Source of the DNA: Candidatus Micrarchaeota archaeon
Lineage (GTDB): Archaea; B1Sed10-29; B47-G15
Direction of reading: 5' to 3'
Length of the DNA: 64,000 bases
NCBI GenBank assembly: GCA_003660975.1
Contig: QMVG01000002.1
Coordinates: 7,996 to 71,995, forward strand
Part shown: positions 7,822 through 57,451 of the stretch, piece after piece
Position numbering within the stretch: the first letter of the stretch is position 1
How the letters are laid out: every line of letters starts with the position of its first letter
Position numbers and translations under genes: made by a program
The notes under the pieces: model-generated
Database searches by the model: none
Told to the model about the DNA's origin: nothing
Seen by the model: the letters and a program-made list of their open reading frames with translations, nothing else

Positions 7822-9292
7822 AATCAAAGCGCTTCTTTTCCGTTTTAGCGCTGCTCTCAATTTTTCTTTTTATTATGCCCTCTTTTATCATGAATTCCAC
7901 ACCTGATTTTATCAAATCTTCAGAGTATTTTGTCATCTCACTTATCGCTTTTATATTCACTAGGCCCTTATTTTCTTTTATTATTCTAAATAATTCGTCC
8001 AAGAAGCTGTCATTAAAGGCAGCATTATCTTTAAGCACCTCATATTCCCCGTTTATGTCTGCTTTGAGTGCTGGAATTTTCCGCTTTGCCATTTTGGTCA
8101 CTGTTTTTGCTTTCGCTTGAATAAGCAAGACAACAATAATGGCAATAGCCAAGACCAGCGCTATGTAAAATATGGAATTACTTTCGCTTATACTCATTAA
8201 AAACGAGGTTGCCTCAAAATACGCCTTGTTTTTGTCTTCCATGGGATCTACTTTCACCAACCTCATCATCGGCTCTTCATATATCACTTGTGCTGATGCA
8301 GGTACCTTGCTAAATAATGGGTTTTTTATCCACTGCTCGTTGTTGTAGTATTCAACCCACGCATAATAACTTCCTCCTTTCTCAGCCACCACCACCTTGC
8401 AAGGCTCTGACAGCTTATCACAGGCAGTATCATAATACGCAGCAGCAGATATAAAATCATTCAATTCTCCATGAAGGTCAACACTGTGAACAATTCTGGA
8501 AGCGCCTATGTTCTCCAATCTATCTAAGATCATTTTATTTAACTCATCTATAGTGGCAACTGTTTCAACATCTCCCCTCGTTCTAAAGCTTTGCTGAGGC
8601 ACATAAGCAGTCAGCTCTAAAGGAATATACAATTGTCTTTTTCTCTGTATGTTCATCGGATAATAAATAGTTCTTACTGTCATCTGAGCATTTGGCTGAA
8701 GCGCTGGGTTGCTTATGCTAACGATATGCCATGGAATCTCCTGAAAGTTTATTTTTTCAGTTTTTAGTGAAATGCCTGGAAAGACAACCCCCAGACTTGC
8801 CCCCTCGCCCTCTTTTGGCATAAAGAGCAAGTAATTCGCACCTTCTCTAAATTGGGAAGCATCAAATATAGTCATATTCTCCTTACTGCTAAAATTGAAG
8901 TTGAGCGTTATTGAGGCGCTCTCTCCCTTATTTTTTATCTTGACTACTGTTTCAATAAAAGCATTGTATATGTTTATCTCAATGCCTACATCAACATTGC
9001 TTATTTCATTGCTTATTTTTAGCCTGTAGCTATCCGCTGGGTTGAATTTGTTATCGCTTCCACCTGCCAATATCACAAATGAATTTCTTTCTATTGGCTG
9101 CCCGTTTACATATATCTGTGGCAGTAAAGTCACATAATACCTTTCAGAAATTATCGCTTTATCAGAGAGAAGCATTGGTAGCTCTATACTGTAGCTATCA
9201 GTGCTTATGAAATAGTAATTTTCGTAAGTATATGGGTTGCTTACGCAATACATAGCAGGCATTATAATCAAAAGCAACAGCAATCTTTTCAT
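7769..9292 (-). CDS. Secreted/membrane-anchored protein with cytoplasmic C-terminal winged-helix-like domain
   Basis: N-terminal signal peptide (MKRLLLLLIIMPAMYC). An extracytoplasmic region of about 370 aa rich in N, S and Y. A single TM (IFYIALVLAIAIIVVLLIQA). Then a roughly 110-aa basic C-terminal domain (ELFRIIKENKGLVNIKAISEMTKYSEDLIKSGVEFMIKEGIIKRK) that resembles a wHTH. Its 3' end overlaps the convergent ATPase gene by about 50 nt. Confidence 0.4.
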   Translation of the reverse strand: MKRLLLLLIIMPAMYCVSNPYTYENYYFISTDSYSIELPMLLSDKAIISERYYVTLLPQIYVNGQPIERNSFVILAGGSDNKFNPADSYRLKISNEISNVDVGIEINIYNAFIETVVKIKNKGESASITLNFNFSSKENMTIFDASQFREGANYLLFMPKEGEGASLGVVFPGISLKTEKINFQEIPWHIVSISNPALQPNAQMTVRTIYYPMNIQRKRQLYIPLELTAYVPQQSFRTRGDVETVATIDELNKMILDRLENIGASRIVHSVDLHGELNDFISAAAYYDTACDKLSEPCKVVVAEKGGSYYAWVEYYNNEQWIKNPLFSKVPASAQVIYEEPMMRLVKVDPMEDKNKAYFEATSFLMSISESNSIFYIALVLAIAIIVVLLIQAKAKTVTKMAKRKIPALKADINGEYEVLKDNAAFNDSFLDELFRIIKENKGLVNIKAISEMTKYSEDLIKSGVEFMIKEGIIKRKIESSAKTEKKRFDFKMDLNLKHLKDLIGKH

Positions 9293-22029: not shown

Positions 22030-22761
22030 ATGTCTGATTTGGTTTCTAAGTTAAAAACACTTGGTTTTACAGATTACGAAGCAAAAGCATACATTGCTCT
22101 AGTTAGCTCTGGGGCTGCTTCTGTGACTGAGATAAGTCAAATATGCGATGTGCCTCGTTCCAACCTTTACTCTGTTTTGGAAAAATTAAATGAAAAAGGT
22201 TTTGTTGAAATTCAACGCGGAAGGCCTATAATGTTTCAAGCAGTGAAACCCTCAAAAGCGTTAAATGAGCAAGTAGACAAGCTGACAAAAAGCATAGAAA
22301 AAGCGAAGAAGGAGGCAATAAAGGAACTGGAAGCCATGATAAAGTCAACACAGAAGAACATAGAACCTGCACTGATATGGGCAGTTAAGGGCAGCTCTGC
22401 TGTTACAACCAGGTTAGCAGAGATGATAAAGCGCTCTAGAAAGGAGGTTCTGATAAATACCCCTTCTCTCTCATTGCTGAATGAGAATGTCGTAAAAGCA
22501 ATAAAAGAAGCCTCTGAAAGAGGAGTGAAGATAAAAGTGGTCACTCAGTCAACAAGAGGAATAGAACTATTTAGAAAAATATGCATAGTGAGAAGCAGGG
22601 ATAAGATATATGGTCTTGATGCTGTGGTTGATGAGAGGGAAGTACTTGTCGCTCCTGCTATGCCTGCAATTGCTGTTTGGGTAGATAACCCCACGATGGC
22701 TGCTCATGTGAAGGATTTTCTCAACCTTGTTTGGAAGGACTCAAACATAATAGGCAAGTAG
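22030..22761 (+). CDS. TrmB-family transcriptional regulator
   Basis: N-terminal LGFTDYEAKAYIALVSSGAASVTEISQICDVPRSNLYSVLEKLNEKGFVE is the canonical TrmB wHTH. 243 aa with a C-terminal effector domain. Sits directly upstream of the pilus genes. Confidence 0.75.
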   Translation: MSDLVSKLKTLGFTDYEAKAYIALVSSGAASVTEISQICDVPRSNLYSVLEKLNEKGFVEIQRGRPIMFQAVKPSKALNEQVDKLTKSIEKAKKEAIKELEAMIKSTQKNIEPALIWAVKGSSAVTTRLAEMIKRSRKEVLINTPSLSLLNENVVKAIKEASERGVKIKVVTQSTRGIELFRKICIVRSRDKIYGLDAVVDEREVLVAPAMPAIAVWVDNPTMAAHVKDFLNLVWKDSNIIGK

Positions 22762-22797: not shown

Positions 22798-24300
22798 ATG
22801 GACTATTTGAAGAAGCTTGTAGACAGTGCTAAAGACACAGGAGTAAATCAAGCATCTACCAAAAAGACACTAGTAGCAAGCTATGGAGATGTCAAAATAT
22901 ATAAGATAGAGGGAGAAGCGCTTCTTCTTTATACTGTTCCGGTTGTGAAGCCTACAGGTCCTGAGAGAGAAATCATAGACACTTTGAAAGAAGCAGCAAC
23001 ACGTTTAATAAGCATAAGTCCTGAAGAGATAAGAGACCCAAAGCTCATGAGAGACATATACACACAGAGAGTGAAGGAGATTATCGAGTCAAGCCCAGAA
23101 CTAGGCATACCAAAGACGCGATTTGACTTTTATGCTGAAATGGTCGTTAGGGAAATGATAGGATATGGTTATCTAGACCCCTTAATTCACGATGACAAGT
23201 TGGAGGAAATAATGGTTATAGGAGCGCAGAAACCTGTCTATGTCTTTCATAGGGATTATGACATGATGAAAACCAACATTGTTTTTAGCACTGACAGCGA
23301 GATATACAACTTAATTTCCAGGATTGCGATGGGAGTGGGAAGGCGAATTGACAAGCAAAACCCCATATTAGATGCCAGATTGCCTGATGGCTCTAGGGTG
23401 AATGCCACGATAAAGCCAATAAGCTTGAATGGCTCAACCATAACTATAAGGAAATTTAGAGAGGATCCGCTAACTGTAGTTGATTTGATAAATAATGGAA
23501 CCATGGACTCCTATTTAGCTGCTTTTCTTTGGCTGGCAGTTGATGGTCTTTACAGTAAGCCTGCCAACATCCTCGTTTCAGGTGGCACAGGTAGTGGTAA
23601 AACAACCACCTTAAACGTACTGGCCAGTTTTATCCCAAGAGAGGAAAGGGTGGTGACGATAGAAGACACTGCTGAGCTAAAGCTTCCAATAGAGCACATA
23701 GTGAGGTTTGAGACGCGTCCTCCAGGGCTTGAAGGCACAGGCGAAATAAGTATGGATGCCCTTGTCAAAAATGCTTTAAGGATGAGGCCTGATAGGATCA
23801 TAGTAGGCGAGATAAGGCACGCTGAGGCCTTCACGCTTTTCACAGCCATGAACACAGGACATCAGGGTTGCATGGGAACAGTGCACGCTAATGACGCTTC
23901 AGAAACGGTAATTAGGTTGACAAACCCACCAATGAGTGTTCCGAAGATTATGCTTACCGCGCTTGACTTGATAGTGGTTCAGAGCAGGATAAGAGACAGG
24001 AGAAAAGGCACAATAAGGAGAGTTACAGAACTTGCAGAGCTTACTGCTGTGTCCAATGAAGGCGACGTTCATTTACAAACGCTGTTTTCATGGGATCCTG
24101 TCTCAGATAGTATAAATCATATGAAAATCAACTCACACTATCTCAAAGAGCTATCCAGATATGCGGGTATGTCTGTTGATGACATTGAGCTTGAAATAGA
24201 GAAAAGGAAACAGGTTTTAGAAGAGCTTACATCCAAAGGGATTAGAGACCTTAAAACTGTGTCTACATATCTAAACCGTTTTGAGGTAAGTAATAAATGA
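22798..24300 (+). CDS. Type IV pilus assembly ATPase (FlaI/TadA/VirB11 family)
   Basis: LDARLPDGSRVNATIKP...TIRKF, Walker A VSGGTGSGKTTTLNVL, Walker B/Asp box RIIVGEIRHAEA, His box GTVHAN. 500 aa. Confidence 0.85.
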   Translation: MDYLKKLVDSAKDTGVNQASTKKTLVASYGDVKIYKIEGEALLLYTVPVVKPTGPEREIIDTLKEAATRLISISPEEIRDPKLMRDIYTQRVKEIIESSPELGIPKTRFDFYAEMVVREMIGYGYLDPLIHDDKLEEIMVIGAQKPVYVFHRDYDMMKTNIVFSTDSEIYNLISRIAMGVGRRIDKQNPILDARLPDGSRVNATIKPISLNGSTITIRKFREDPLTVVDLINNGTMDSYLAAFLWLAVDGLYSKPANILVSGGTGSGKTTTLNVLASFIPREERVVTIEDTAELKLPIEHIVRFETRPPGLEGTGEISMDALVKNALRMRPDRIIVGEIRHAEAFTLFTAMNTGHQGCMGTVHANDASETVIRLTNPPMSVPKIMLTALDLIVVQSRIRDRRKGTIRRVTELAELTAVSNEGDVHLQTLFSWDPVSDSINHMKINSHYLKELSRYAGMSVDDIELEIEKRKQVLEELTSKGIRDLKTVSTYLNRFEVSNK

Positions 24301-25409
24301 CAGAAATAAAGAAACTAAAAAAAATTTTGGAAGCCGAGGATAGGAAAGAGAAAGAGCAGTCGCCATACCTGAACAGACAGTTGCTTTCTAAGATAATAAA
24401 GAGGATGGAAAAAAAATATGAAAAGGAGGGACTTAGCACCCCTGATTATGCTGCAAGAGAAAAAAAAGCAGAAAAGCTTAAAGTAATCACAGGCTCTCCA
24501 AAGGAATTGCTCTTGTCAAAAAAGCCAATAGTAAGGTTTCTAATTAGCATATATATGTTATCTTCTCCAATCAGTTATTACCTTCTAACATTTCTTGAGA
24601 AAATTTTAGGCAAGAGCTTGGAAAAAGACCTTAAAGCTTCTGGCATGATGTATTCCCAGAAGCAATACCTTGCATTGACTATGTCGCTTGTGTTTATCCT
24701 GTGGGTTTCATTTTTAATCCCTCTGACAGCACTGACGCTGCTCTTTCATTTTTCTCTATTCTACCTGCTTCTTTCAGCCATTTTAATCCCTTTGCTTGCT
24801 TTTTCAATTGCATTTTTACTACCAAGCACAAGGGCCAGCAAAATAGCAAATGAGATTGACAAGGAGCTTCCATTTGCATTGAGACATATGAGCATACAAA
24901 TACGGGCTGGAGTTGGAATATACAATTCCATGGAGTCAATAGCTGTGTCTGATTATGGCTATTTGTCAAAAGGTTTCAAATTCGTTCTCAGCAATATCCA
25001 AAAAGGCATGCCAACTGAAGAAGCTTTAGAGTCGTGGGCATATATGACACGGTCAGAAGCCCTTCAAAGGGTTATAAGCCACATAGTTAGAGCTCTAAGA
25101 ACAGGCGGCAATCTCTCTGATATTATGCTAAGCATTTCAGAGGACATATCATTTGAAAGAAGAATGAAAATATCTGACTTTGCCGAGAAACTCAACCTCA
25201 TGGCTCTTTTTTTGATGATGGTGGCCATAGTAGTACCTGTTATGGTAGGCATACTGACTGCCATTGCATCAATGCCCTCTCTTAGCTCTTATGTAAATGT
25301 CTTTTCTATATTCTCACTAACTTTTCTGCAGTTGCTGTATTTTCTGATAAGCCCAAGCCTTATATTGCTCTTCCTTTACTTCATAAAGATCTCAGATCCA
25401 GGTGCTTGA
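24297..25409 (+). CDS. Pilus platform membrane protein, N-terminal T2SSF-domain half (TadB/FlaJ-like)
   Basis: Cytoplasmic K/E-rich N-terminus, TM helices, and a T2SSF-type soluble segment (LPFALRHMSIQIRAGVGIYNSMESIA). It ends at TGA 25407 to 25409, in the same frame as the next ORF. Confidence 0.65.
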   Translation: MTEIKKLKKILEAEDRKEKEQSPYLNRQLLSKIIKRMEKKYEKEGLSTPDYAAREKKAEKLKVITGSPKELLLSKKPIVRFLISIYMLSSPISYYLLTFLEKILGKSLEKDLKASGMMYSQKQYLALTMSLVFILWVSFLIPLTALTLLFHFSLFYLLLSAILIPLLAFSIAFLLPSTRASKIANEIDKELPFALRHMSIQIRAGVGIYNSMESIAVSDYGYLSKGFKFVLSNIQKGMPTEEALESWAYMTRSEALQRVISHIVRALRTGGNLSDIMLSISEDISFERRMKISDFAEKLNLMALFLMMVAIVVPVMVGILTAIASMPSLSSYVNVFSIFSLTFLQLLYFLISPSLILLFLYFIKISDPGA

Positions 25410-26264
25410 ATGAAGGCATTAGAAAAGTATCAAGAAATAGCCCATTTCGCAGGGATTTCACAGCCCTGGCTTTTGTTGGGAGGAAGTATTTCAATAGGCG
25501 CAATACTGTTTTTCCTTTTGTTGTCCTATGACCCAATACTCTCAGTGCTTGTATTACTTATCTCCTTAGATGTATCTTTCGGCCTGCCTTTTTTGCTCGC
25601 AAGTAGGAAGGTTGAGAAGATTGAAGACAGCTTGCCAGATGTATTGCAGCACATAAGCACCACACTGAAAGCAGGCTCCACAATAGAGATGGCTCTAAAG
25701 GAGGTCTCCTTAGTTGACTATGGCCCAATAAGCCAAGAGATGAAACGGATGCTGGACGAAATAAACAAAGGCAAGACATTTGAAGAGGCCTTCAACGACT
25801 TTGCTGAAAGTTCTCACTCAAAACTTGTTAAGAAGATTGCAATCATAATCTCAGCCGCAAGGCGAAGCGGTGGGGCTCTATTACAGACTTTGAGCCTCAC
25901 AGCAGAGGATATAAGAGCTGTTAACCGCTTGAGACGGGAGAGAAAAAGCAAAACACTTATGCAGTTCTTGTTTTTGATAGCAGCAAGCTCTATCGTAGCT
26001 CCTTTTATATTTGGCATAGTGCGGGCTGTTCTGTCAACACTTCTTTCAATAAGCCCTTTTACCAACACAGATACATTGCAAGCCTTTGATTTTACATTTA
26101 AGCTATTTCTGGTATTGCAAGGTACTCTTACAACTATTGGAGCTGTTATGGTGAAAGAAGGCAAATTAGAAAAAAGTGCGCTTTACATCCCATTTTCTCT
26201 CTTCTCTATTTACGTGATATACAGCCTCGTGTCTGTCCTCTTTATGTCTTTAATAGGTGTTTGA
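25410..26264 (+). CDS. Pilus platform membrane protein, C-terminal T2SSF-domain half (TadC/FlaJ-like)
   Basis: Second T2SSF-like segment (LPDVLQHISTTLKAGSTIEMALKEVS) flanked by TM helices. Its ATG immediately follows the in-frame TGA of the upstream half. Confidence 0.65.
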   Translation: MKALEKYQEIAHFAGISQPWLLLGGSISIGAILFFLLLSYDPILSVLVLLISLDVSFGLPFLLASRKVEKIEDSLPDVLQHISTTLKAGSTIEMALKEVSLVDYGPISQEMKRMLDEINKGKTFEEAFNDFAESSHSKLVKKIAIIISAARRSGGALLQTLSLTAEDIRAVNRLRRERKSKTLMQFLFLIAASSIVAPFIFGIVRAVLSTLLSISPFTNTDTLQAFDFTFKLFLVLQGTLTTIGAVMVKEGKLEKSALYIPFSLFSIYVIYSLVSVLFMSLIGV

Positions 26265-26571
26265 TATGAAAGCCCAAACTGCTATGGAATACCTAGTCCT
26301 GACAGCTGTTGTGTTGACCATTGTAACTGTTGTAAGTTATATGATACTTACGGCATCAAAAGCAAGTGGTCAGACAGCCTCAGAGATGACCTGCAGGGCA
26401 ACAGCCTCCTCATATAAGTTAGCTATAATGGCAGACCCAAATGCCTGCGATGCAGAATGCGAAAAGGCCTGCGAAAAAGCCTGCGTGGACAGCAATGGCT
26501 ATGATGTAATTGGAGGCGAAAAAGGTTGCGGAACAGGTTGTCAGGCTTGCAAAAGCGGGACATTGCATTAA
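26257..26571 (+). CDS. Class III signal peptide (type IV pilin-like) protein, Cys-rich
   Basis: MKAQTAMEYLVLTAVVLTIVTVV is a K-A|Q prepilin-type N-terminus followed by a hydrophobic helix. The C-terminal domain carries 10 Cys, including CDAECEKACEKAC. The true start is probably the Met of MKAQ. Confidence 0.55.
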   Translation: MFDMKAQTAMEYLVLTAVVLTIVTVVSYMILTASKASGQTASEMTCRATASSYKLAIMADPNACDAECEKACEKACVDSNGYDVIGGEKGCGTGCQACKSGTLH

Positions 26572-26594: not shown

Positions 26595-26921
26595 ATGTTC
26601 TCTGGTGTTATCATGAAGGCACAGGGCTCACTTGAATACCTAATCATATTAGCAGCTGTATTGGCAATAGGAGCTATAGTGGTTTTGTTTGTGACAGATG
26701 CTTTTAGCCAGACAAAAACAGCTGCGAGCGTTGAGAATTGTAGAAATGCACTTACAAAAGTATATCAAGAATACAAACTTCACGGGTCTGTTGCCAAAGA
26801 CATTTCGGACAGCTGCTATGAAATCTGCAAGGATTTCGTTTATGCATCCTCACCAGCAACAGACTTTTGTGATGGGGAAGGTTTGACAGAAGACATAATA
26901 AACCACATAAGCCAATCCTAA
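26595..26921 (+). CDS. Class III signal peptide (pilin-like) protein
   Basis: MKAQGSLEYLIILAAVLAIGAIVVL prepilin-like N-terminus with 4 Cys in the globular part. The true start is probably the Met of MKAQ. Confidence 0.55.
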   Translation: MFSGVIMKAQGSLEYLIILAAVLAIGAIVVLFVTDAFSQTKTAASVENCRNALTKVYQEYKLHGSVAKDISDSCYEICKDFVYASSPATDFCDGEGLTEDIINHISQS

Positions 26922-26953: not shown

Positions 26954-27904
26954 ATGTATGCTTTTCTAGCATTTGCACTGTTGCTTACAGCAAGCTATTT
27001 TGACTTAAAGGATAGGAGAATACCTCCCACGCTAAGCTACTCATTCATCTTGATTGGACTCACAGCCCACCTATTAGAAGGAATATCTCTCCAATATATC
27101 TATATCGTGTTTGCCTCTTTTTTCTTTGCCTACGCACTTTATAAGTTTGGGGTGTGGGCAGGGGGAGACTTCAAACTATTCGTGGCGCTTTCCCTCCTAC
27201 TGCCCACATACAAATCTATTGACTTCTTTTCATTTTATGTGCTGTTTTTTGCTGTGCTTGCCGTTCTGCCTTTTCTACTTGTATTTTTTGCGTACAAGCT
27301 TTTTCTTTCGAAAGAGTTCAGGAGAGGGGCGAAGGCAAAAGCTAAATCATGGCTAAAGCGTTCACTTTTTATCGCTATAATCGCTACAGCCTCTTATGAA
27401 CTTTCATCATTTTTCACATTGCCTCCTGAGTTATCTGTGCTCTTCTTTTTCATGCTTTTCTTGCTTAAGCAAAGTGGCTCTTTCATTGCTGTAGTTTTTC
27501 TATTAAACAGCATAATCAGAAATCCATCATATGTCTTAACAGTCATTTACTTGTTTTTAGTTTCCCTGCTTATTTCCATAGCTATCTACTCATTTAAGGT
27601 TTTGAGAAAAACTGTTCTCAGAAAAAAGCTGCCCATAGCCAAGATAAAGGAAGGCATGATACCTGCCCAGCACTTAATAAAGAAGGGAAAGAGGTATTAT
27701 CTAAAAGAAGCAGAATGGCGCGACTTATTCCATAAAGATAATATCGTGATAGACTCTATGAAGGCCAGAGGGCTGAACAGGGATGAAATCCTATTGATTA
27801 AGAAATCAGGCATAAAAGAAATAGAAATAAAGAAGTCACTTCCTTTTGTCCCCTTCATGTGCCTGGGATTTGTTCTAGCTCTCCTTAGTTTATTTATATT
27901 TTGA
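26954..27904 (+). CDS. Prepilin/preflagellin peptidase (A24 family, PibD/FlaK-like)
   Basis: Polytopic membrane protein with the two catalytic Asp contexts (YFDLKDRRIP and VWAGGDFKLF). It sits inside the pilin array. Confidence 0.6.
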   Translation: MYAFLAFALLLTASYFDLKDRRIPPTLSYSFILIGLTAHLLEGISLQYIYIVFASFFFAYALYKFGVWAGGDFKLFVALSLLLPTYKSIDFFSFYVLFFAVLAVLPFLLVFFAYKLFLSKEFRRGAKAKAKSWLKRSLFIAIIATASYELSSFFTLPPELSVLFFFMLFLLKQSGSFIAVVFLLNSIIRNPSYVLTVIYLFLVSLLISIAIYSFKVLRKTVLRKKLPIAKIKEGMIPAQHLIKKGKRYYLKEAEWRDLFHKDNIVIDSMKARGLNRDEILLIKKSGIKEIEIKKSLPFVPFMCLGFVLALLSLFIF

Positions 27905-27919
27905 CTGCCTTATTCTATC

Positions 27920-28087
27920 ATGGATGACAGGGCCCAGGTAAGCACGGAGTATCTAATAATACTCGCAGTGTCTTTGGTTCTAGCAGCAGTTGTGACTCTT
28001 TTAACAGTGAACCTCTTTAGCGTGAAGTCATCCGTGAAGGAATTGATAGAAATATACTACAAACGCGCCTTGCAACTGGTGACTTAA
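27920..28087 (+). CDS. Minor pilin-like protein (55 aa, class III signal peptide)
   Basis: Not in the ORF track (<60 aa). Sequence MDDRAQVSTEYLIILAVSLVLAAVVTLLTV..., stop TAA. Tandem with the next gene. Confidence 0.5.
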   Translation: MDDRAQVSTEYLIILAVSLVLAAVVTLLTVNLFSVKSSVKELIEIYYKRALQLVT

Positions 28088-28255
28088 ATGGATGATTGCG
28101 CACAGGTTTCAATAGAATATATGTTCACAGCAGCTATTTTTCTTATAATTGCAGCCATTCTATCTGTTTACGTAGAGAGGATATTTGCAATGAAAGACAC
28201 GATTTTCAAGACAAACAGCATATATTCAAAATCACTCTCAAACCTATTAAAGTGA
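28088..28255 (+). CDS. Minor pilin-like protein (55 aa, class III signal peptide)
   Basis: Not in the ORF track. Sequence MDDCAQVSIEYMFTAAIFLIIAAILSVYV..., stop TGA. Paralogue of 27920 to 28087. Confidence 0.5.
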   Translation: MDDCAQVSIEYMFTAAIFLIIAAILSVYVERIFAMKDTIFKTNSIYSKSLSNLLK

Positions 28256-28259
28256 TATT

Positions 28260-28640
28260 ATGAAAGCTCAGCTGACATTGGAATACCTTATTATTTTTGT
28301 AATCTTACTGCTACTGTTTTCAAATGTTTCTATGGATTTAATGGGTTCTTCAATGAGCTCTGCCCTGCAGATACAGAAGCAACAGATAATGAAAGCAGCC
28401 AATCTCTCTTTAGAGTCAGCTGCATCCAAGCTTCAGTATCAGGGAGAAGGGGCCAGGATATTAGTAAAGATAAGAGCAGCACCTGATTGCAATTACATAT
28501 TTGAGGAGAAAAGAGCATACGCTGAATGCAGGAGCGGAACTTATGATATAGGTCCAAATCCTTTACCAGCTGATTTGGTGTACTCTGAAAAGACAATAAA
28601 GGAGAATGAGTTGGATGTTGTTGAAATTAGTAAAGAGTAA
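28260..28640 (+). CDS. Class III signal peptide (pilin-like) protein
   Basis: MKAQLTLEYLIIFVILLLLF N-terminus, 126 aa. Confidence 0.55.
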   Translation: MKAQLTLEYLIIFVILLLLFSNVSMDLMGSSMSSALQIQKQQIMKAANLSLESAASKLQYQGEGARILVKIRAAPDCNYIFEEKRAYAECRSGTYDIGPNPLPADLVYSEKTIKENELDVVEISKE

Positions 28641-28962
28641 GGGACAGCTTTCAATTGAACTTTTGTTTATCATTTCAATACTGATTCTCCTATGCTCATC
28701 CATAACACTGGACGCATTGGCCACTTCATCACGAATGTTTGACATATCACACGTTAAAGACGCTGTAAATACTTATCTTTACAAAAAAGGCATTGAAGAC
28801 AAAGCATGCCTTTCAATGAGGCTTTCTGCGTTGTCAGTAAAGCAAAATACAGTTTACGTCAGGATAGATGGAGACAAAAGCTGCAAGCCTAGCTCTGATG
28901 AACTGCTTTATTTAATAAAAAAAGAAAACCCTTCTTTTGCGCTTTCCGTGGAGGTGATTTAA
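28606..28962 (+). CDS. Class III signal peptide (pilin-like) protein
   Basis: KSKGQLSIELLFIISILILL prepilin-like segment near the N-terminus. 118 aa. The start is uncertain. Confidence 0.45.
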   Translation: MSWMLLKLVKSKGQLSIELLFIISILILLCSSITLDALATSSRMFDISHVKDAVNTYLYKKGIEDKACLSMRLSALSVKQNTVYVRIDGDKSCKPSSDELLYLIKKENPSFALSVEVI

Positions 28963-29499
28963 TTGGAATGGACTAAAACTAATGTTATTATACTGCTTCA
29001 GTCAGCAGTCCTATTCGCTGTCATTCTCGCAGTAGTTGCGAGTTTTTTGTCAGAACCATTTTTACTGCTTCTGGACATGGTTAGCTTGATTATGCTTGGT
29101 TATGGCCTTTGCTTAGTATATAAAAATTGGAGAAAGGAGTTCAAAACATATGCATTGCTTTTCAGTGTTCTCTTTTTTATAACAGTAGCTTTCCCAATTT
29201 TGATAATATCCAAATTTATAAACAGTTTCAATACCTCTTTATTACTTCTCTTTTTGCTGCTTTTCTATTTTATCTTGAAGGCTTATTTGACACCAAAGCA
29301 GCTGGAAGGTATAGTAGTAATGGCAGACAAAGAGAGAGCAGTGGTGCATATAGATTACAATATCCTTTTGTCATTACCTGCAGGGGATTATGTTGTCAGA
29401 AATAATGGAGCCAAGAAGGGACATAAAGTTCTGCTGTCTTATAAAAAGAGCATATTCAGGACTGTAAAGCCAGAAGCCGTGATCAAGGTGATAAAATGA
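28963..29499 (+). CDS. Membrane protein (about 4 TM) with small C-terminal soluble domain, embedded in the pilin array
   Basis: Four hydrophobic helices, then a roughly 70-aa beta-rich-looking tail (GIVVMADKERAVVHIDYNILLSLPAGDYVVRNNGAKKGHKVLLSYKK). No family recognised. Confidence 0.4.
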   Translation: MEWTKTNVIILLQSAVLFAVILAVVASFLSEPFLLLLDMVSLIMLGYGLCLVYKNWRKEFKTYALLFSVLFFITVAFPILIISKFINSFNTSLLLLFLLLFYFILKAYLTPKQLEGIVVMADKERAVVHIDYNILLSLPAGDYVVRNNGAKKGHKVLLSYKKSIFRTVKPEAVIKVIK

Positions 29500-29870
29500 A
29501 GAAGGGCATGTTTAGCATAGATTTTATTATGGCCCTTGTGATAGTTAGCTTTGTAGTTTTCTTTATACAAGAGCATACATATAGGAGTTTGAGACACAGC
29601 GAAGAGTTTGGAAGATTGGAGCAGCTCTCAAGCATGACATCTTCTGTTGCATCTCAGCTAAATGCTTTTTATGCCCTATCACCAGAAAAGGGAGACTTCT
29701 TTAATTTATTACCCCCTAAAATAAGCAGTTTCAGCAGAACCCAGGATTGCACTGTCTTGAAATACGCTTCGTCTCTGACACTTAGTTGTGGAGATTCTTC
29801 CCTCTCCTTTCCACTTTGTTTTGACGATGCATCTTACGAGGTTGGTGAAAAGGCGGTTGAGAAGGTATGA
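29496..29870 (+). CDS. Pilin-like protein
   Basis: MKKGMFSIDFIMALVIVSFVVFFI N-terminus, which is K-G followed by a hydrophobic helix. 124 aa. Confidence 0.45.
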   Translation: MKKGMFSIDFIMALVIVSFVVFFIQEHTYRSLRHSEEFGRLEQLSSMTSSVASQLNAFYALSPEKGDFFNLLPPKISSFSRTQDCTVLKYASSLTLSCGDSSLSFPLCFDDASYEVGEKAVEKV

Positions 29871-30268
29871 AAGCACAGATATTTTCATTGGACGCCATGC
29901 TTGCCATTGTAGCTCTTACAGTTATCGTGGGCTATTTTTCGTGGTCCCTTGAGAATACATTACATAGCGCAGATATTTCGGAGTATGAGAGCTTGCAGCG
30001 TATGGCAGATGATTGGGCACAGCTGGCTGTTAAAAGAATCTTGGCGCAAAGAGACGAACCAAATAAGGTAGACAGCTCAAGGCTTAGTGATCTTGCAGCG
30101 CAGATGTCAGAACTGCTTGTTTCACCATATGACTTTGAGCTGCATCTTGGCAATTCTAAGCTGGGTGGGGACTGCAGTTCAAAGCAAAATGTGGTTTCTG
30201 TCAGGCGATTGGTTTATGACAAGGACTCAGCAGAAGGGAAAGTATTTGAATTGAGGTTATGTGTATGA
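29867..30268 (+). CDS. Class III signal peptide (pilin-like) protein
   Basis: MKAQIFSLDAMLAIVALTVIVGYF N-terminus. 133 aa. Confidence 0.55.
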   Translation: MKAQIFSLDAMLAIVALTVIVGYFSWSLENTLHSADISEYESLQRMADDWAQLAVKRILAQRDEPNKVDSSRLSDLAAQMSELLVSPYDFELHLGNSKLGGDCSSKQNVVSVRRLVYDKDSAEGKVFELRLCV

Positions 30269-30564
30269 AAGGCTTGCTCTTTAGCGTTGATTCGGTGTTG
30301 GCATTGTTGCTGTTGTTTGTAATTAGCTCAACATATCTTGTTATGCTGGAAGTGCAGGAAAAAAACAAAGACAACGTTTTGATGCTTAGCAGGTTGGCAA
30401 GAGACATAATAGACATAAGGTATTACCAGCCTTCATATTCGCCGCCAGACTGGCTAAAAGAGGAAAACTGCCAGCACAATGTGGTTTCTCTGGACTATTT
30501 TGTTTACGATAGCAGCTCTAATAAGGTAATTAAAAAAACTCAAAAGGTGTGCTTCAATGAATAG
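30259..30564 (+). CDS. Pilin-like protein
   Basis: MKGLLFSVDSVLALLLLFVISSTYLV N-terminus. 101 aa. Confidence 0.45.
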   Translation: MCMKGLLFSVDSVLALLLLFVISSTYLVMLEVQEKNKDNVLMLSRLARDIIDIRYYQPSYSPPDWLKEENCQHNVVSLDYFVYDSSSNKVIKKTQKVCFNE

Positions 30565-31036
30565 GGCCTTCGTTATCTCCTCATCTGTCTTCATTCTGCT
30601 GTTAGCCAGCTTATTTCTCATAAACTTTATTATGCTGACCTCTACATACCAGTCATCTGCTGATGAAAGGAAGCTGATGCTGGATTCCCTTTACAATGTT
30701 TTAACAGATGCAAAGCGCCTCTTATTCTACGCAGGAGAGAATGTGCTTGATGATGCTGTGGCGGACCATATAGGACACTGCCCTAAAGACGCGATTCTTG
30801 AGGCATGGGTAGATAACGCATTGCAAAACAGCATTGCAGAAATGAACAGCTTTTTGAGAGATAAAAACATAAGGCTTAGCTTATCCTATGACGGGCCCTT
30901 TGTCAGTAAAACTGGGCTGTGCTCTTATAAGGTGAGCTTAACAAATGTTAAAATTACTGCTGTTAAGCAGATGGGAGACATAACAGAAGCAAAGCTCAGC
31001 CACAGTTTGCCAGACATAAACAGGAATTATCCTTGA
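30557..31036 (+). CDS. Pilin-like or pilus-associated secreted protein
   Basis: N-terminal hydrophobic helix (FVISSSVFILLLASLFLINFIM), 159 aa. Translationally coupled to the upstream gene. Confidence 0.4.
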   Translation: MNRAFVISSSVFILLLASLFLINFIMLTSTYQSSADERKLMLDSLYNVLTDAKRLLFYAGENVLDDAVADHIGHCPKDAILEAWVDNALQNSIAEMNSFLRDKNIRLSLSYDGPFVSKTGLCSYKVSLTNVKITAVKQMGDITEAKLSHSLPDINRNYP

Positions 31037-51433: not shown

Positions 51434-53617
<2,184 letters not shown>

Positions 53618-53618
53618 T

Positions 53619-54242
53619 CTAGAGTAAAGACCTTACCAGCTCTACTGTGCCTCCAAAGCCCAGCCAGAAATTGAACAGCAACATTGTGATAAAGACAACA
53701 GCCCAGACCTTGAAGCTCCATGCAGCTACTTTTGAGCCGTCAAGTGGAGGTATTGGCAGGAGGTTGAAGAGGCCTAAAAAGATATTTATGGTAAATCCCC
53801 AAGAGGCAAGTGTTTTAATGAAAGCGATCTGGGGAAGAAGGACATAAAGAAACACAAAAAGTATGGACAGCACAAAATTGGAAAAAGGCCCTGCTAAGCT
53901 TATAATGCCATCTTCTCTTCGCGTTAGATTTGCCTTGTAAATGTAAACAGCACCAGGCGCTGCGAATATAAACCTACCTCCTGTTATAACTGCCATCATA
54001 AGCGCAAAAACAAGCCCCATGGTCCATGCCTTGTAAAACGCATGACAGCCAAAATGGATAGCCACGAACCTATGAGATAACTCGTGGACAACAAAGCCAA
54101 GGCCAACTGCAAGAAATATTATTGGAATAAGCTGATAATTGCCAAAGTTTATGGCAAAAAGACTGAATGCTAATGAAATGGTGAAAAAAGACACAAACAA
54201 GTCAAAAATCTCTCCTCTGTAAAACAGCCCCATGGGAATCAA
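53619..54242 (-). CDS. Membrane metalloprotease, M50/site-2 protease-like
   Basis: Polytopic membrane protein with HELSH (HExxH) inside a TM helix (VVHELSHRFVAIHFG) and a later LDG motif. Confidence 0.55.
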   Translation of the reverse strand: MIPMGLFYRGEIFDLFVSFFTISLAFSLFAINFGNYQLIPIIFLAVGLGFVVHELSHRFVAIHFGCHAFYKAWTMGLVFALMMAVITGGRFIFAAPGAVYIYKANLTRREDGIISLAGPFSNFVLSILFVFLYVLLPQIAFIKTLASWGFTINIFLGLFNLLPIPPLDGSKVAAWSFKVWAVVFITMLLFNFWLGFGGTVELVRSLL

Positions 54243-54291
54243 GAAGATTACTCAGAAGATATAAAAAAGCTTTACCAATACGTTTAAAAAT

Positions 54292-55074
54292 TTGTCAGTT
54301 CACAATAGATGGGGGATCGCTATGAAATTTGTAAATGTATTTGTTGTACTTGTATCAGCCGTTGCAATTGTTATGCTTTCACTTTTAATCCATCCAGCGA
54401 ACAATGCAGTGGCGGCCCAAGAGGGGCAGATAACAGAGAGCTTTAATGTTTCTGTAACAGGAGAAGCCTCTGTATATCTCAACCCAAATAAGGTAATTGT
54501 TAATCTGGGAGTTGAAACGCTCTCAAAAACCGCAAAAGAGTCTCAGGAGAGAAACGCAGAAATAATGAACGACGTGCTTGCAGCTTTAGAGCAGGCAGGC
54601 ATAAGCAGGGAGCAGATAAAGACAACGCACTACAGCTTATATGCTGACTATGACTGGAGTAATGGAGATAGGGTATTCAAAGGCTATAAAACAAGGCATT
54701 ACATACAAGTGAGCTCTAAGAACATAGACAAGGCAGGAAGCATAGTTGACGCTGCCTCCTCAGCAGGGGCCAACTACATAGGAGACATACAATTTACATT
54801 AACAGATGAGGCTATGCTGGAAGCCAAGAAAGCTGCAATTGCCATAGCTACAAACAATTCCAAAGAAAAGGCAATGGCAATCGCCAGAACCTTCGGAAAT
54901 TACCGCATTGTGCCTGTGAAGCTGAGCCTTTCTTCATATAGCCCATATCCCATATACAAAGGTGCCATAGGAAACTATATGGAAAGCGAGAGGTCTGCCT
55001 CAACACAGATATATAGTGGAGACATACGTGTTTCAGCAACTGTTCAGGCCCTCTATAAGGCGATTCCCTCTTAA
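54292..55074 (+). CDS. SIMPL/DUF541-domain secreted protein
   Basis: N-terminal anchor, then a body consistent with the SIMPL family (ISREQIKTTHYSLYADYDW...GYKTRHYIQVSSKNIDKAG). 260 aa. The start is possibly at the internal MKFVNV. Confidence 0.55.
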   Translation: MSVHNRWGIAMKFVNVFVVLVSAVAIVMLSLLIHPANNAVAAQEGQITESFNVSVTGEASVYLNPNKVIVNLGVETLSKTAKESQERNAEIMNDVLAALEQAGISREQIKTTHYSLYADYDWSNGDRVFKGYKTRHYIQVSSKNIDKAGSIVDAASSAGANYIGDIQFTLTDEAMLEAKKAAIAIATNNSKEKAMAIARTFGNYRIVPVKLSLSSYSPYPIYKGAIGNYMESERSASTQIYSGDIRVSATVQALYKAIPS

Positions 55075-55134
55075 CTCTTTTTAACCTTTTCTTGTTGGGA
55101 AACAGTTTTAAGCCCTGTTTTTTCAAAGACAGTT

Positions 55135-55314
55135 ATGGACAATAGGGCCCAAATTTCTATAGAGATGCTCCTCGTGGCAGGGGCTTTGTTCGCCGTGGCA
55201 GTTCTTGTTGTCAGCAGCCTGACGCAGAGTTCAAAAGAAGCAAGTGATAAGATGAGCGCCAAGGTAAGCGAGGTTTTGGAGAAAATTGACAAGATGACAG
55301 AAGGTGCTTCCTAA
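55135..55314 (+). CDS. Minor pilin-like protein (59 aa, class III signal peptide)
   Basis: Not in the ORF track. Sequence MDNRAQISIEMLLVAGALFAVAVLVVSSL..., stop TAA overlapping the next ATG (TAATG). Confidence 0.5.
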   Translation: MDNRAQISIEMLLVAGALFAVAVLVVSSLTQSSKEASDKMSAKVSEVLEKIDKMTEGAS

Positions 55315-55481
55315 TGGACGATAAAGCGCAGATTAGCCTTGAAATGCTCTTGTTGGCAGCTGCGTTGATAGCTGTGGCTGTCTTGTTTCTGAGCGGTGTT
55401 AGGACTTCTTCAAAGTCATTCCAATCAAAGATGACTGCCAACAGCAAGCAGGCCCTGTCAAAATTGGGGCAAATCAAATGA
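55314..55481 (+). CDS. Minor pilin-like protein (55 aa, class III signal peptide)
   Basis: Not in the ORF track. Sequence MDDKAQISLEMLLLAAALIAVAVLFLSG... It is a tandem paralogue of the upstream gene. Its stop overlaps the next ATG (ATGA). Confidence 0.5.
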   Translation: MDDKAQISLEMLLLAAALIAVAVLFLSGVRTSSKSFQSKMTANSKQALSKLGQIK

Positions 55482-55876
55482 GGGGTCAGCTGAGCCTTGA
55501 AATGTTATTGCTGATGTCTGCAATGATGGGAGCGTTAGCAGTTATCCTGCCTTTATATAACTCACTATTTTCTGCTTCCAACACCGTTCTTGAAAAACAA
55601 GGGGCTCTGGAAATGGCAAGGAGCTTTAAACATTTATGCTCAATGCTTGATGTTATGGGGAAGGAGTCCTCGGCTAACTTTCTTTTTAATTCTCCATGCG
55701 ATTATGAGATTAGGAAAAAAGAGAATTCAGCAGAAATCAGCTTTGGAGAAGGAAGTATCAGCTTTGAGCTGGAGGAAAACTGTGAGCTGCCAACCATGGT
55801 TGGAAGGGGCAAGCACAATTTTTTTGTTAAGAAAGAGGGGAGCAAGGTTATTGTTTATGACAGACAAGCAGGTTAA
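55478..55876 (+). CDS. Class III signal peptide (pilin-like) protein
   Basis: MRGQLSLEMLLLMSAMMGALAVILPLY N-terminus. 132 aa. Confidence 0.55.
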   Translation: MRGQLSLEMLLLMSAMMGALAVILPLYNSLFSASNTVLEKQGALEMARSFKHLCSMLDVMGKESSANFLFNSPCDYEIRKKENSAEISFGEGSISFELEENCELPTMVGRGKHNFFVKKEGSKVIVYDRQAG

Positions 55877-56153
55877 AGCTCCCATCAATCTTTTTTCTTG
55901 AGAAGCTGATGCCTGTCTCGCAGTCCTCATCAAATGCCACAGAGACACCAACATGATTCATCAGCTTTTTTACGCAGCTTTTGCTTAACTCAGCTTTGAG
56001 GTTGCAGACCTCTATCGCATCTTGCGTCATTTGGAACAAGATTTCATTGTTTAGGTCAGGGAGTGGCTGCCTTGACATAATCATAACAGACAATATGACC
56101 ATAACTAAGAAAAATGCCAGCAAAGCGTCTGTTGTGAACAGAAAAGCTTTCAT
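55848..56153 (-). CDS. Pilin-like protein
   Basis: MKAFLFTTDALLAFFLVMVILSVMIM N-terminus. Start placed at the internal Met. The track ORF begins 30 nt upstream at 56183. Confidence 0.4.
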   Translation of the reverse strand: MKAFLFTTDALLAFFLVMVILSVMIMSRQPLPDLNNEILFQMTQDAIEVCNLKAELSKSCVKKLMNHVGVSVAFDEDCETGISFSRKKIDGSFNLLVCHKQ

Positions 56154-56596
56154 TCGCATTTGCCCCACAGCTCCACTACACATTCTTTATTTCCACATAG
56201 CGCGAACCTTCTTAGCGCCAGCCCCTCCTTTTTTCCAGCTGAGAAAAGCTCACGCCCATTTATCTCATAAATAAACAGACCCCAATGCCTCGGCAGTGCC
56301 AGTTCCCTGCCCAAATCGTCATGTTTTTTAAGCATTTCAATGCTTTTTTTGGATAACTGGTGGTGTTTTACGTTATTGGCCATTTTTACAGCAAGACCTA
56401 TGCCATTGTCCTCAGATGATGTGGAGATTAGCAGCTCTGAGGCATCTATCAGCGCCCTCTGGCTTTCGAAACAATTATATGATTGTTTTATAGATGCATA
56501 TCTTTGCGTAATGAATATTTGGAATAGAGAAATGGACAGGATTAAGACAAAGAAAGCAATTAACACATCACTTAGGAATATCTGGGCCTTTCGCAT
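56150..56596 (-). CDS. Class III signal peptide (pilin-like) protein
   Basis: MRKAQIFLSDVLIAFFVLILSISLF N-terminus. 148 aa. Confidence 0.55.
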   Translation of the reverse strand: MRKAQIFLSDVLIAFFVLILSISLFQIFITQRYASIKQSYNCFESQRALIDASELLISTSSEDNGIGLAVKMANNVKHHQLSKKSIEMLKKHDDLGRELALPRHWGLFIYEINGRELFSAGKKEGLALRRFALCGNKECVVELWGKCE

Positions 56597-56865
56597 CCTA
56601 ACACCTTTTTTGATAGCATGTCTTTCCCCAACTTTAGATATATCTTATCACCTTGCTTGCCAGCGTAGGCAAAATGAAAATCGCTGTCAAATAAGAGCCT
56701 ATTGCAGGCAGAGGCGTAGTAGCTCAACTCTGCCTCTTTTTTAAGCTTTGACAGGCCTGAAGCCAGCATAGTGTTGCTTTTCTCAGCTGTGAATATTATC
56801 ATTGAGATAACGCTCGCTATTAATGCCACAGAAATTATAAACTCAAGGCTAAGCTGCCCTTTCAA
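56572..56865 (-). CDS. Class III signal peptide (pilin-like) protein
   Basis: MKGQLSLEFIISVALIASVISMIIF N-terminus. 97 aa. Confidence 0.55.
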   Translation of the reverse strand: MKGQLSLEFIISVALIASVISMIIFTAEKSNTMLASGLSKLKKEAELSYYASACNRLLFDSDFHFAYAGKQGDKIYLKLGKDMLSKKVLGCERPRYS

Positions 56866-57451
56866 GCACTTCCCCTCCCCTTATGATTAGGTGAACCGTT
56901 TTACCTCCTATCTTCTTCTCAGCAACAAAGGCTGGTTCAGGCATCTTCATTTCGGATTTTAGCCTGCTGGCCACTTCATTGAGAATTCCCCTGACCTCTT
57001 TTATTGACTTTAAGTATGCAGGGCAAGCAGTGATATCCAAGAGAGGCGGACACTTTTCGCTGATTTCAACATTGTTGTTGTTAAAACCTATGAAGAGCAT
57101 GCACTGGGCATAACTCATTTTTTCGAAAGGCGGGACAAAGAAAAGGATATTAGCGCCATCAGTATACGCTATGCCTGTTTTTGCATCCAGACCAGAAGCC
57201 CACTCGTATATTTCATGACACAGCCGGACATCATCAATATACACATCACCAGTTCTCATTTCAAACGCTTCTTCAGCAATATCAAAAAAAGCGTCTTCTA
57301 TTTCATACCTAAACTCATCAAAGGCCAGCCTTTCGTTTATGTTTTCCTTTACCTGCCACATCGCCTCACTGATTCCTTCTTCCTGCTCTAAATAGAGCAG
57401 CACAAATGGGCTTATTACAATAAGCAGTGATATGCTTAGGAAGGCTCTCAT
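56849..57451 (-). CDS. Secreted or pilus-associated hypothetical protein (first gene of minus-strand pilin operon)
   Basis: N-terminal hydrophobic helix (MRAFLSISLLIVISPFVLLYL) followed by an acidic soluble domain. 200 aa. Confidence 0.4.
   Translation of the reverse strand: MRAFLSISLLIVISPFVLLYLEQEEGISEAMWQVKENINERLAFDEFRYEIEDAFFDIAEEAFEMRTGDVYIDDVRLCHEIYEWASGLDAKTGIAYTDGANILFFVPPFEKMSYAQCMLFIGFNNNNVEISEKCPPLLDITACPAYLKSIKEVRGILNEVASRLKSEMKMPEPAFVAEKKIGGKTVHLIIRGGEVLERAA

Follow-up and report, generated by a model that had tools for sequence, protein, structure and literature searches.

Four very short open reading frames (ORFs) in the genome of a Candidatus Micrarchaeota archaeon probably encode the filament-forming subunits of a pilus. 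They lie in a 64,000-nucleotide stretch (the window; positions 7,996 to 71,995 of the 127,970-bp contig QMVG01000002.1, assembly GCA_003660975.1) of a metagenome-assembled genome (MAG) whose locus tags read DRN74_*, and they form two tandem pairs: ORF1 and ORF2 are pair 1, at locus 1, and ORF3 and ORF4 are pair 2, at locus 2. All four are genuine, conserved genes. Their sequences support membership of the broad class III signal-peptide family (PF04021 / UPF0333), and comparison with better-known systems suggests that their products are the Epd/Flp-like pilins of an Epd/Tad-like pilus, of the type that Makarova called 'clade 1' or 'System 1'. Such comparison also makes a role as the main filament subunit more likely than one as a minor or tip subunit; for the major-subunit role taken alone, the balance tips modestly in its favor.

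Four conserved small genes with a class III signal

A sequence-only reading of the window had singled out these four frames, and all of them were found at the positions given in Table 1, on the forward strand, with products of 55, 55, 59 and 55 amino acids (aa) that have an N-terminus in common, M-D-(D/N)-x-A↓Q-(V/I)-S-x-E (the arrow marks the predicted cleavage site). M1, D2, A5, Q6, S8 and E10 are invariant in the alignment of the four. The tandem packing described earlier is borne out as well. In pair 1 the TAA of ORF1 directly abuts the ATG of ORF2 (TAAATG), and the 126-aa ORF that comes next starts 4 nt from the end of ORF2; in pair 2 the start of ORF4 lies on the stop of ORF3 in a TAATG overlap, and ORF4 overlaps a 132-aa ORF through ATGA. 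The description of the genes as unannotated is right for ORF2 and ORF4, which nr lacks although the JGI, ENA and Logan gene sets include them, and wrong for ORF1 and ORF3, which GenBank holds as RLG21589.1 and RLG21621.1, each under the name 'hypothetical protein'.

A profile hidden Markov model (HMM) made from the four ORFs and four first hits, searched through 1.84 billion cluster representatives, matched 236 of them at E ≤ 1e-3 and 29 at E ≤ 1e-10. In almost every case the match covers nearly the full length, and nearly all of these proteins are 50-60 aa long (the mode is 55 aa, followed by 54, 56, 57 and 58 aa). Because the E-values of the family profile go down to 1e-15 to 1e-21 in a search of this size, the small ORFs are not chance frames. 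A word-indexed search with an 87-sequence alignment returned at least 526 proteins. The taxonomic range of the family is read mainly from the source names among these, together with five genomes confirmed with a 12-sequence alignment; the organisms named are Candidatus Micrarchaeota and Candidatus Diapherotrites/Iainarchaeum.

Gene order is also kept. In five other contigs (L001, L002, L003, L008 and L009) an A24 peptidase gene is followed by two small ORFs and then by a pilin-like ORF of 130-144 aa, and the small ORFs of these contigs share 32-64% amino-acid identity with those of the window. Nucleotide differences are most frequent at codon position 3, then 1, then 2 in 16 of 16 pairwise comparisons, the pattern that purifying selection would leave; between ORF1 and its L008 ortholog (L008a), at 64% identity, positions 1, 2 and 3 differ 18, 9 and 27 times. 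The sequence-only reading had named unconserved or disrupted frames in relatives as the finding that would tell against it. What was found is conservation, as the synteny in five contigs, the hundreds of homologs of the same length and the codon-position bias all indicate. Its claim of tandem pairs at both loci fares less evenly: relatives keep the pair at locus 1 and have a single copy at locus 2. Two frames that overlap the called ones, 28096-28263 (+) and 28017-28112 (-), were rejected as true genes, since they are without homolog support, unlike the called frames.

PF04021 (Class III signal peptide) is the best Pfam family for all four ORFs. At E ≤ 0.01 it is matched by 66 of 87 family members, and P0052, P0061, P0069, P0073, P0075 and P0126 (24.3-30.8 bits) score above its gathering score. 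The layout of a class III signal, namely a short charged leader, (K/R)(G/A), Q(+1)-x-S-x-E(+5) and a hydrophobic helix of ~20 residues, is present in all four, the sole deviation being Cys(-2) of ORF2. Gln(+1) and Glu(+5) also mark the prepilin-peptidase site of EppA substrates, which is the canonical one in archaea (PMC3875500). The motif holds across the family: among 151 members, the leader has M at -5 in 115, D at -4 in 106, N or D at -3 in 104, K or R at -2 in 131 and A or G at -1 in 141, while the mature part has Q at +1 in 149, V or I at +2, S at +3 in 138 and E at +5 in 149. Mature parts have a median of 50 aa, and their residue +6 is Y in 94, M in 27 and L in 19.

This last position separates two subfamilies, an 'EYL' type that includes pair 1 and an 'EM/EL' type that includes pair 2. 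E(+5)Y(+6), the core of the Flp motif, is found in pair 1 and in most of its subfamily. Aligned to each other with hhalign, the two types match over 50 columns (98% probability, E = 2.9e-14), with a helix 3 residues shorter in EM/EL. A further family, PF16982 (Flp1_like), is matched at E ≤ 0.01 by 7 of 87 family members (best 4.5e-7) and faintly by ORF4 (E = 0.1); those of the matches that were looked at individually lie far under its gathering score of 33.5 bits, and PF16982 is a neighboring, separate family.

The earlier call of pilins processed by a prepilin peptidase thus holds in pilin type, in the class III signal (PF04021, all four) and in the position of the genes in or beside pilus loci, with cleavage predicted. 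The family itself is not an unknown one, as relatives already carry the names 'class III signal peptide-containing protein' at NCBI and 'UPF0333 family' at IMG. A literature search for 'UPF0333' found nothing, and no paper specifically on the DPANN small-pilin family was found.

Structure prediction is consistent with a protein that consists of a helix and little else. With the family alignment, AlphaFold2 models residues 3-54 as one unbroken helix both in ORF1 (pLDDT 94.9) and in ORF4 (pLDDT 93.5), so that the small pilins are predicted to be without a globular domain. In most alignment columns from +6 to +25 of the mature part, more than 85-100% of the residues are hydrophobic. Beyond them, the tail keeps hydrophobic residues at +27/28, 30, 34, 38, 41, 45 and 48/49, a spacing of 3-4, with charged positions between. 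The short basic tail of the sequence-only reading is seen in ORF1, ORF2 and ORF4; that of ORF3 has a net charge of about -1, and the character is not family-wide, the two subfamilies having mean net tail charges of +0.8 and -0.3. N-x-S/T sequons occur in none of the four window small pilins (0/4) and in about 26-27% of the family.

The small pilins as probable filament subunits

Locus 1 is a complete Epd/Tad-like pilus gene cluster. It has split single-T2SSF platforms, an EppA-type peptidase, short pilins modeled as domain-less, and multiple larger pilin-like genes, of which about 5 would be expected and 6-8, of 101-159 aa, are present. Two adjacent single-T2SSF platform genes together with a short pilin characterize the Epd-like clade, the proposed source of bacterial Tad pili as well (PMC6668835), and there are reports of clade-1 pili from the Micrarchaeon Mia14 (PMC5498576) and from DPANN at large (bioRxiv 10.64898/2026.04.22.720090). 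The peptidase gene lies 15 nt upstream of ORF1 and has both Asp motifs in its sequence (FDLKDRRIP and WAGGDFKLF); its product is predicted to be the processing enzyme of the small pilins.

How might such a pilus be built? The precursor would enter the membrane by its hydrophobic helix, and the upstream EppA-like A24 peptidase (26954-27904) would then cut off the 5-residue leader M-D-(D/N)-(K/R/C)-A, leaving a peptide of ~50 residues with Gln(+1) as its first residue and Glu(+5). The CpaF/TadA-like ATPase and the two single-T2SSF platforms would pull such peptides out of the membrane and assemble them, stacked, into a thin filament, with the hydrophobic N-terminal halves as its core and the conserved amphipathic C-terminal halves as its surface. 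The larger pilin-like genes downstream (101-159 aa) would supply low-abundance minor pilins, and the machinery of locus 1 would also serve the pilins of locus 2 as a satellite set. Both cleavage at A↓Q and polymerization are steps that we infer. The pilus would likely serve to attach the cell to surfaces or to a host.

The case for a major subunit begins with what is known of related pili. The major pilin of Methanococcus maripaludis, MMP1685, has 74 aa (62 aa when mature), and its minor pilins EpdA-C have 130-156 aa (PMC3875500). For clade 1, Makarova et al. predicted the major-pilin role for small families of ~70 aa (PMC4858521). Shortness is characteristic of the major pilins of Epd-like and Tad systems (PMC6668835, PMC4858521), and the arCOG06620 pilin is without a globular domain, like Tad pilins (bioRxiv 10.64898/2026.04.22.720090). 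Because short domain-less pilins are the major ones in Epd and Tad systems and the minor ones are about twice as long, the small ORFs of the window would be major subunits, and the 101-159 aa pilin-like ORFs would be a better fit to the minor-pilin role. The uniform length of the small pilins, their conserved packing face and a TATA-like box of each pair's own point the same way.

These boxes belong to a wider pattern. A TATA-like hexamer lies 27-32 nt before the ATG at 15 of the 67 gene starts of the window, against about 3.5 expected, mostly at starts without a Shine-Dalgarno (SD) sequence, and this combination suggests leaderless transcripts. Operon-internal genes of the window tend to have GGTG, AGGTG or GGAGG as SD at -9 to -13. 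Gene starts at 22030, 22798, 31091, 36145, 40098, 42034, 42815, 43235 and 57555 served as examples in the survey of the two classes. The first gene of each small pair has a TATA-like box and no SD (Table 1), as do genes that open transcription units in the window, and the second has an SD-like sequence (GGTGA at -10 of ORF2, AGGTG at -12 of ORF4). Since the TTTATA before ORF1 lies in the end of the peptidase gene, it may be an internal promoter from which the small-pilin module is transcribed as leaderless mRNA, and TTTATA is likewise found at -27 in L001. As a sign that each pair has its own promoter, the boxes are suggestive.

Several results weigh against the small pilins as major subunits, or against their being pilins of this kind. 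The spacing of the box is variable in relatives: TATA-like runs are somewhat further upstream in L008 and L003 (in L003 with an SD), and L002 is ambiguous. ORF2 shares 32% identity with its L008 ortholog and is the faster-evolving copy of pair 1, ORF1 being the better conserved. Its processing is also uncertain, because it has Cys instead of K/R at -2 (MDDCA↓Q, encoded at 28088-28102), which is otherwise seen only in the near-identical P0003 and P0004. ORF1 to ORF4 score 21.0, 15.5, 14.9 and 23.2 bits with PF04021, each just under its gathering score of 23.7. A scan of NCBIfam gave nothing for ORF1 and ORF2 and only noise-level matches (ComGE, classIII_w_PIP) for ORF3 and ORF4, and Flp_Fap (PF04964) has no match at E ≤ 1 in the four ORFs. 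A profile search of the PDB returned weak N-terminal-helix matches to assorted type IV pilins and archaellins (best E = 0.006), with transmembrane-helix noise from MsbA among them, and the Caulobacter Tad PilA chain (8u1k, 45 residues) came at E = 1.4. Foldseek found no PDB match for the single-helix model, a null that is uninformative because the model is a lone helix. MMP1283 of M. maripaludis, equally small, is a minor pilin without which piliation fails (PMC3875500). Last, the two Cys-rich class III pilins of ~105 aa encoded after the platform genes could be the filament subunit instead and are the main alternative candidates.

The last two points lead to another account of the locus, in which the small ORFs are low-abundance minor pilins that prime or cap a shaft made of the ~105-aa Cys-rich pilins (26257, 26595) or of some other protein. 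The sequence-only reading had likewise proposed minor pilins acting as tip or priming subunits. This division of labor has the precedent of MMP1283, and the two larger pilins score above the PF04021 threshold, come right after the platform genes and are kept in relatives; the fast evolution of ORF2 (32% identity, where ORF1 has 64%) is in keeping with it as well. We nevertheless consider it unlikely. Minor pilins of Epd and Tad systems are about twice the length of the major one, and the filament there is made of short domain-less pilins (PMC3875500, PMC6668835, PMC4858521), which leaves the earlier proposal unsupported. The small genes have TATA-like boxes of their own, and their large family, with its very uniform length and conserved amphipathic face, is what would be expected of a repetitive packing unit.

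More improbable still is that the small ORFs yield processed single-helix peptides that form no filament, whether held in the membrane, as a short pseudopilus or a component of the machinery, or secreted. Such an account would suit products so extremely small, with so conserved an acidic 5-residue leader M-D-(D/N), and it dispenses with the polymerization that the filament reading has to infer. A full pilus-assembly cluster is its context, however, and pilins of 45-62 aa that polymerize do exist (PilA of PDB 8u1k, with 45 residues; MMP1685, PMC3875500). For the distinct class of secreted helical peptides once suggested for these ORFs there is no support: the first ~25 mature residues are almost all hydrophobic, and with +6 to +25 of this character a soluble secreted peptide is unlikely. 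That the frames are chance or mis-called ones rather than genes, as their shortness and the missing GenBank annotation of ORF2 and ORF4 might suggest, is next to inconceivable given hundreds of full-length homologs of the same length, synteny kept in L001, L002, L003, L008, L009, L010 and L011, codon-position differences as under purifying selection and SD or TATA signals at the predicted starts.

Neighboring genes and the second locus

Table 1. Small pilin genes, their upstream signals and the neighboring genes at locus 1 and locus 2. Positions are those of the window.
Feature	Position	Strand	Size	Remarks
Locus 1
TrmB-type regulator	22030			First of the cluster
Pilus assembly ATPase, TadA/CpaF/FlaI superfamily	22798-24300	+	500 aa	GenBank 'CpaF family protein', RLG21583.1
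Platform protein 1, TadB-like	24297-25409	+		One T2SSF domain, PF00482 E = 3e-19
Platform protein 2, TadC-like	25410-26264	+		One T2SSF domain, PF00482 E = 6.7e-20
Cys-rich class III pilin	26257-26571	+	about 101-104 aa	PF04021 27.7 bits, above gathering score; motif scan
Cys-rich class III pilin	26595-26921	+	about 102-108 aa	PF04021 28.7 bits, above gathering score; ortholog in L003, L008
Prepilin (class III signal) peptidase, EppA-like architecture	26954-27904	+		Peptidase_A24 E = 8.8e-12, Arc_PepC E = 5e-6
TATA-like box TTTATA	27893-27898	+		27 nt before ORF1 ATG, inside 3' end of peptidase gene; no SD
ORF1, small pilin 1	27920-28087	+	55 aa	N-terminus MDDRAQVSTEYL…; leader MDDRA, mature 50 aa (predicted); EYL-type
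ORF2, small pilin 2	28088-28255	+	55 aa	N-terminus MDDCAQVSIEYM…; leader MDDCA (predicted); EYL/EYM-type
Pilin-like protein	28260-28640	+	126 aa	MKAQLTLEYL…; weak PF04021; candidate minor pilin
Pilin-like protein	28606-28962	+	118 aa	…KGQLSIELL…; PF04021 E = 6e-4
DUF2101 membrane protein	28963-29499	+	178 aa	PF09874 22.3 bits, gathering score 22
Four overlapping ORFs	29496-31036	+	124, 133, 101, 159 aa	Short charged N-termini, then hydrophobic helix; candidate minor pilins or accessory subunits
Locus 2
TATA-like box TTTTAA	55106-55111	+		29 nt before ORF3 ATG; no SD
ORF3, small pilin 3	55135-55314	+	59 aa	N-terminus MDNRAQISIEML…; leader MDNRA (predicted); EM-type
ORF4, small pilin 4	55314-55481	+	55 aa	N-terminus MDDKAQISLEML…; leader MDDKA (predicted); EM-type
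Pilin-like protein	55478-55876	+	132 aa	MRGQLSLEML…; PF04021 E = 0.002
Four convergent ORFs	55848-57451	-	111, 148, 97, 200 aa	Most with pilin-like N-termini; class III motif in the 97-aa ORF

Against NCBIfam, the locus 1 ATPase scores 339 bits with FlaI and 254 bits with the TadA family, both under the model cutoffs. The first Cys-rich pilin is called from a GTG at 26257, and the ATG at 26266 (MKAQ…) is probably its true start. Both of the ~105-aa pilins have Cys-rich C-terminal parts and conserved relatives of their own (P0117, P0127, P0153), which start MR(R)AQGSLEYLIIIAAVLAIAAIVVLF…. The 126-aa gene has orthologs of 130-144 aa after the small pair in L001, L002, L003, L008 and L009 and is a conserved third gene of the module. 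Further along, the DUF2101 protein may be an uncharacterized component of the pilus machinery, and the syntenic string of L008 likewise has a gene of 178 aa. For the four ORFs at 29496-31036 Pfam gave no family, and a syntenic string of similar-sized genes is found in L008.

The neighbors of pair 2 include CDC48 and an M50 peptidase, and neither an ATPase nor a platform or pilus-type peptidase is encoded at locus 2 itself. Its gene order, CDC48, M50 peptidase (-), EM-type small pilin, a gene of ~136-141 aa and four pilin-like genes (-), recurs in two DPANN contigs, one of them (L011) 853 kb long: the block spans 51470-57451 in the window, 3134-8160 in L010 and 3097-8389 in L011. The counterpart of the 132-aa gene has 136-141 aa in these contigs and again follows the small pilin, and both have the same four-gene block on the minus strand. 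Set against these, the window has an inserted SIMPL/DUF541 gene (54292-55074) and a duplicated small pilin. As L010 and L011 carry a single small pilin at locus 2, pair 2, whose members are 49% identical, is a lineage-specific tandem duplication. That locus 2 as a whole arose by duplication of the locus 1 pilin set was also considered and is not demonstrated, BLASTP of the larger genes having given N-terminal-helix matches only.

Small pilins of related kinds occur elsewhere. A three-pilin cluster of an Iainarchaeum MAG contig (L006) has near-identical counterparts in L004 (JAFCCH010000039.1, labeled Thaumarchaeota) and L007 (JAFCCG010000023.1, labeled Chloroflexi bacterium), which are probably DPANN sequence mis-binned into other MAGs. 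Across these contigs the cluster encodes a 54-aa protein starting M(S/G)F(W/L)KE…, a pilin of ~94-98 aa and a 57-aa protein starting MDN(R/K)AQVSIEYL. The first protein represents a second kind of ~54-aa pilin, with an 11-residue leader (M-x-F-x-K-E-x-K-A↓QGSIEML…; L004 3187-3351, L006 5456-5620, L007 5460-5624), encoded two genes upstream of the MDNxAQ type in these Iainarchaeota-like contigs. Its presence beside that type indicates that DPANN genomes carry several distinct minimal pilin types.

Significance and comparison with known pilins

DPANN such as Micrarchaeota depend on physical contact with a host. Pili-like connections have been seen by microscopy (PMC5498576), and the small pilins provide a specific 50-residue candidate, easily synthesized, for the filament subunit in Micrarchaeota and Iainarchaeota. 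The DPANN subfamily is new; the kind to which it belongs, short domain-less type IV pilins of Epd/Tad-like pili, is already known. A bolder proposal, which we put forward tentatively and with considerable doubt, is that the MD(D/N)(K/R)A↓Q family consists of minimal, non-glycosylated, single-helix 50-residue pilins specific to or enriched in DPANN (Micrarchaeota, Iainarchaeota/Diapherotrites) that form the shaft of the host-contact pili of these ultra-small archaea. If so, the E(+5)Y(+6) family could be the closest archaeal counterpart of Flp pilins, a concrete sequence link for an archaeal origin of Tad, and the peptidase could follow a distinct recognition code, marked by the conserved acidic leader. 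In other respects, the small pilins are an expected part of a machine of known type. In practical terms, standard annotation missed half of the small-pilin genes because of their size, and pilus loci in DPANN MAGs can therefore seem to be without a major pilin.

Among archaeal pilins, the small ORFs resemble EpdE (MMP1685, arCOG06620) and the UPF0333/DUF361 pilins of M. maripaludis in their class III signal, Gln(+1), Glu(+5), very short length and lack of a globular domain. The EppA-dependent pili of that organism also have several small paralogs per genome, an EppA-type peptidase, two platform genes and about 5 larger minor pilins (PMC3875500, PMC4858521, bioRxiv 10.64898/2026.04.22.720090). 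The differences begin with size, 50 aa in the mature small pilins against 62 aa in MMP1685, and with the leader, which has 5 residues and is acidic (M-D-D/N-K/R-A), whereas those of M. maripaludis have 5-13 residues and end in Gly. Tyr(+6), present in the locus 1 type, is missing from M. maripaludis pilins (PMC3875500). MMP1685 is a glycoprotein, the window small pilins have no N-glycosylation sequon, and the major pilin gene of Methanococcus stands alone, whereas the small pair at locus 1 is inside the main cluster beside the peptidase. A length like that of the small pilins is found in PF16982, Flp1_like, a family of short archaeal proteins whose domain has ~49 residues.

Bacterial Flp/Tad pilins such as Caulobacter PilA and Aggregatibacter Flp-1 and Flp-2 are the other close likeness, with ~45-50 aa in the mature form and essentially one helix. 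In the locus 1 type, Glu(+5)-Tyr(+6) stands in the same register as in PilA of PDB 8u1k. The small ORFs may well work like EpdE and Flp pilins, yet they are not members of the bacterial Flp family PF04964: cleavage would fall at A↓Q, with Gln at +1, rather than at G↓(A/T), and E(+5)Y(+6) is confined to pair 1, the locus 2 type having Met or Leu at +6. There is no secretin, unlike in bacterial Tad systems, the organism being an archaeon. In bacterial Tad loci, tandem pilin genes lie beside a prepilin peptidase gene, as in the flp-1-flp-2-tadV operon, and the layout is the same here. The split platform of TadB/TadC type and the ATPase of CpaF type are shared with Tad systems too. An archaeal Epd-like system is the proposed ancestor of Tad systems, and an archaeal set of Flp-like pilins bears on this hypothesis of an Epd-to-Tad transfer (PMC6668835).

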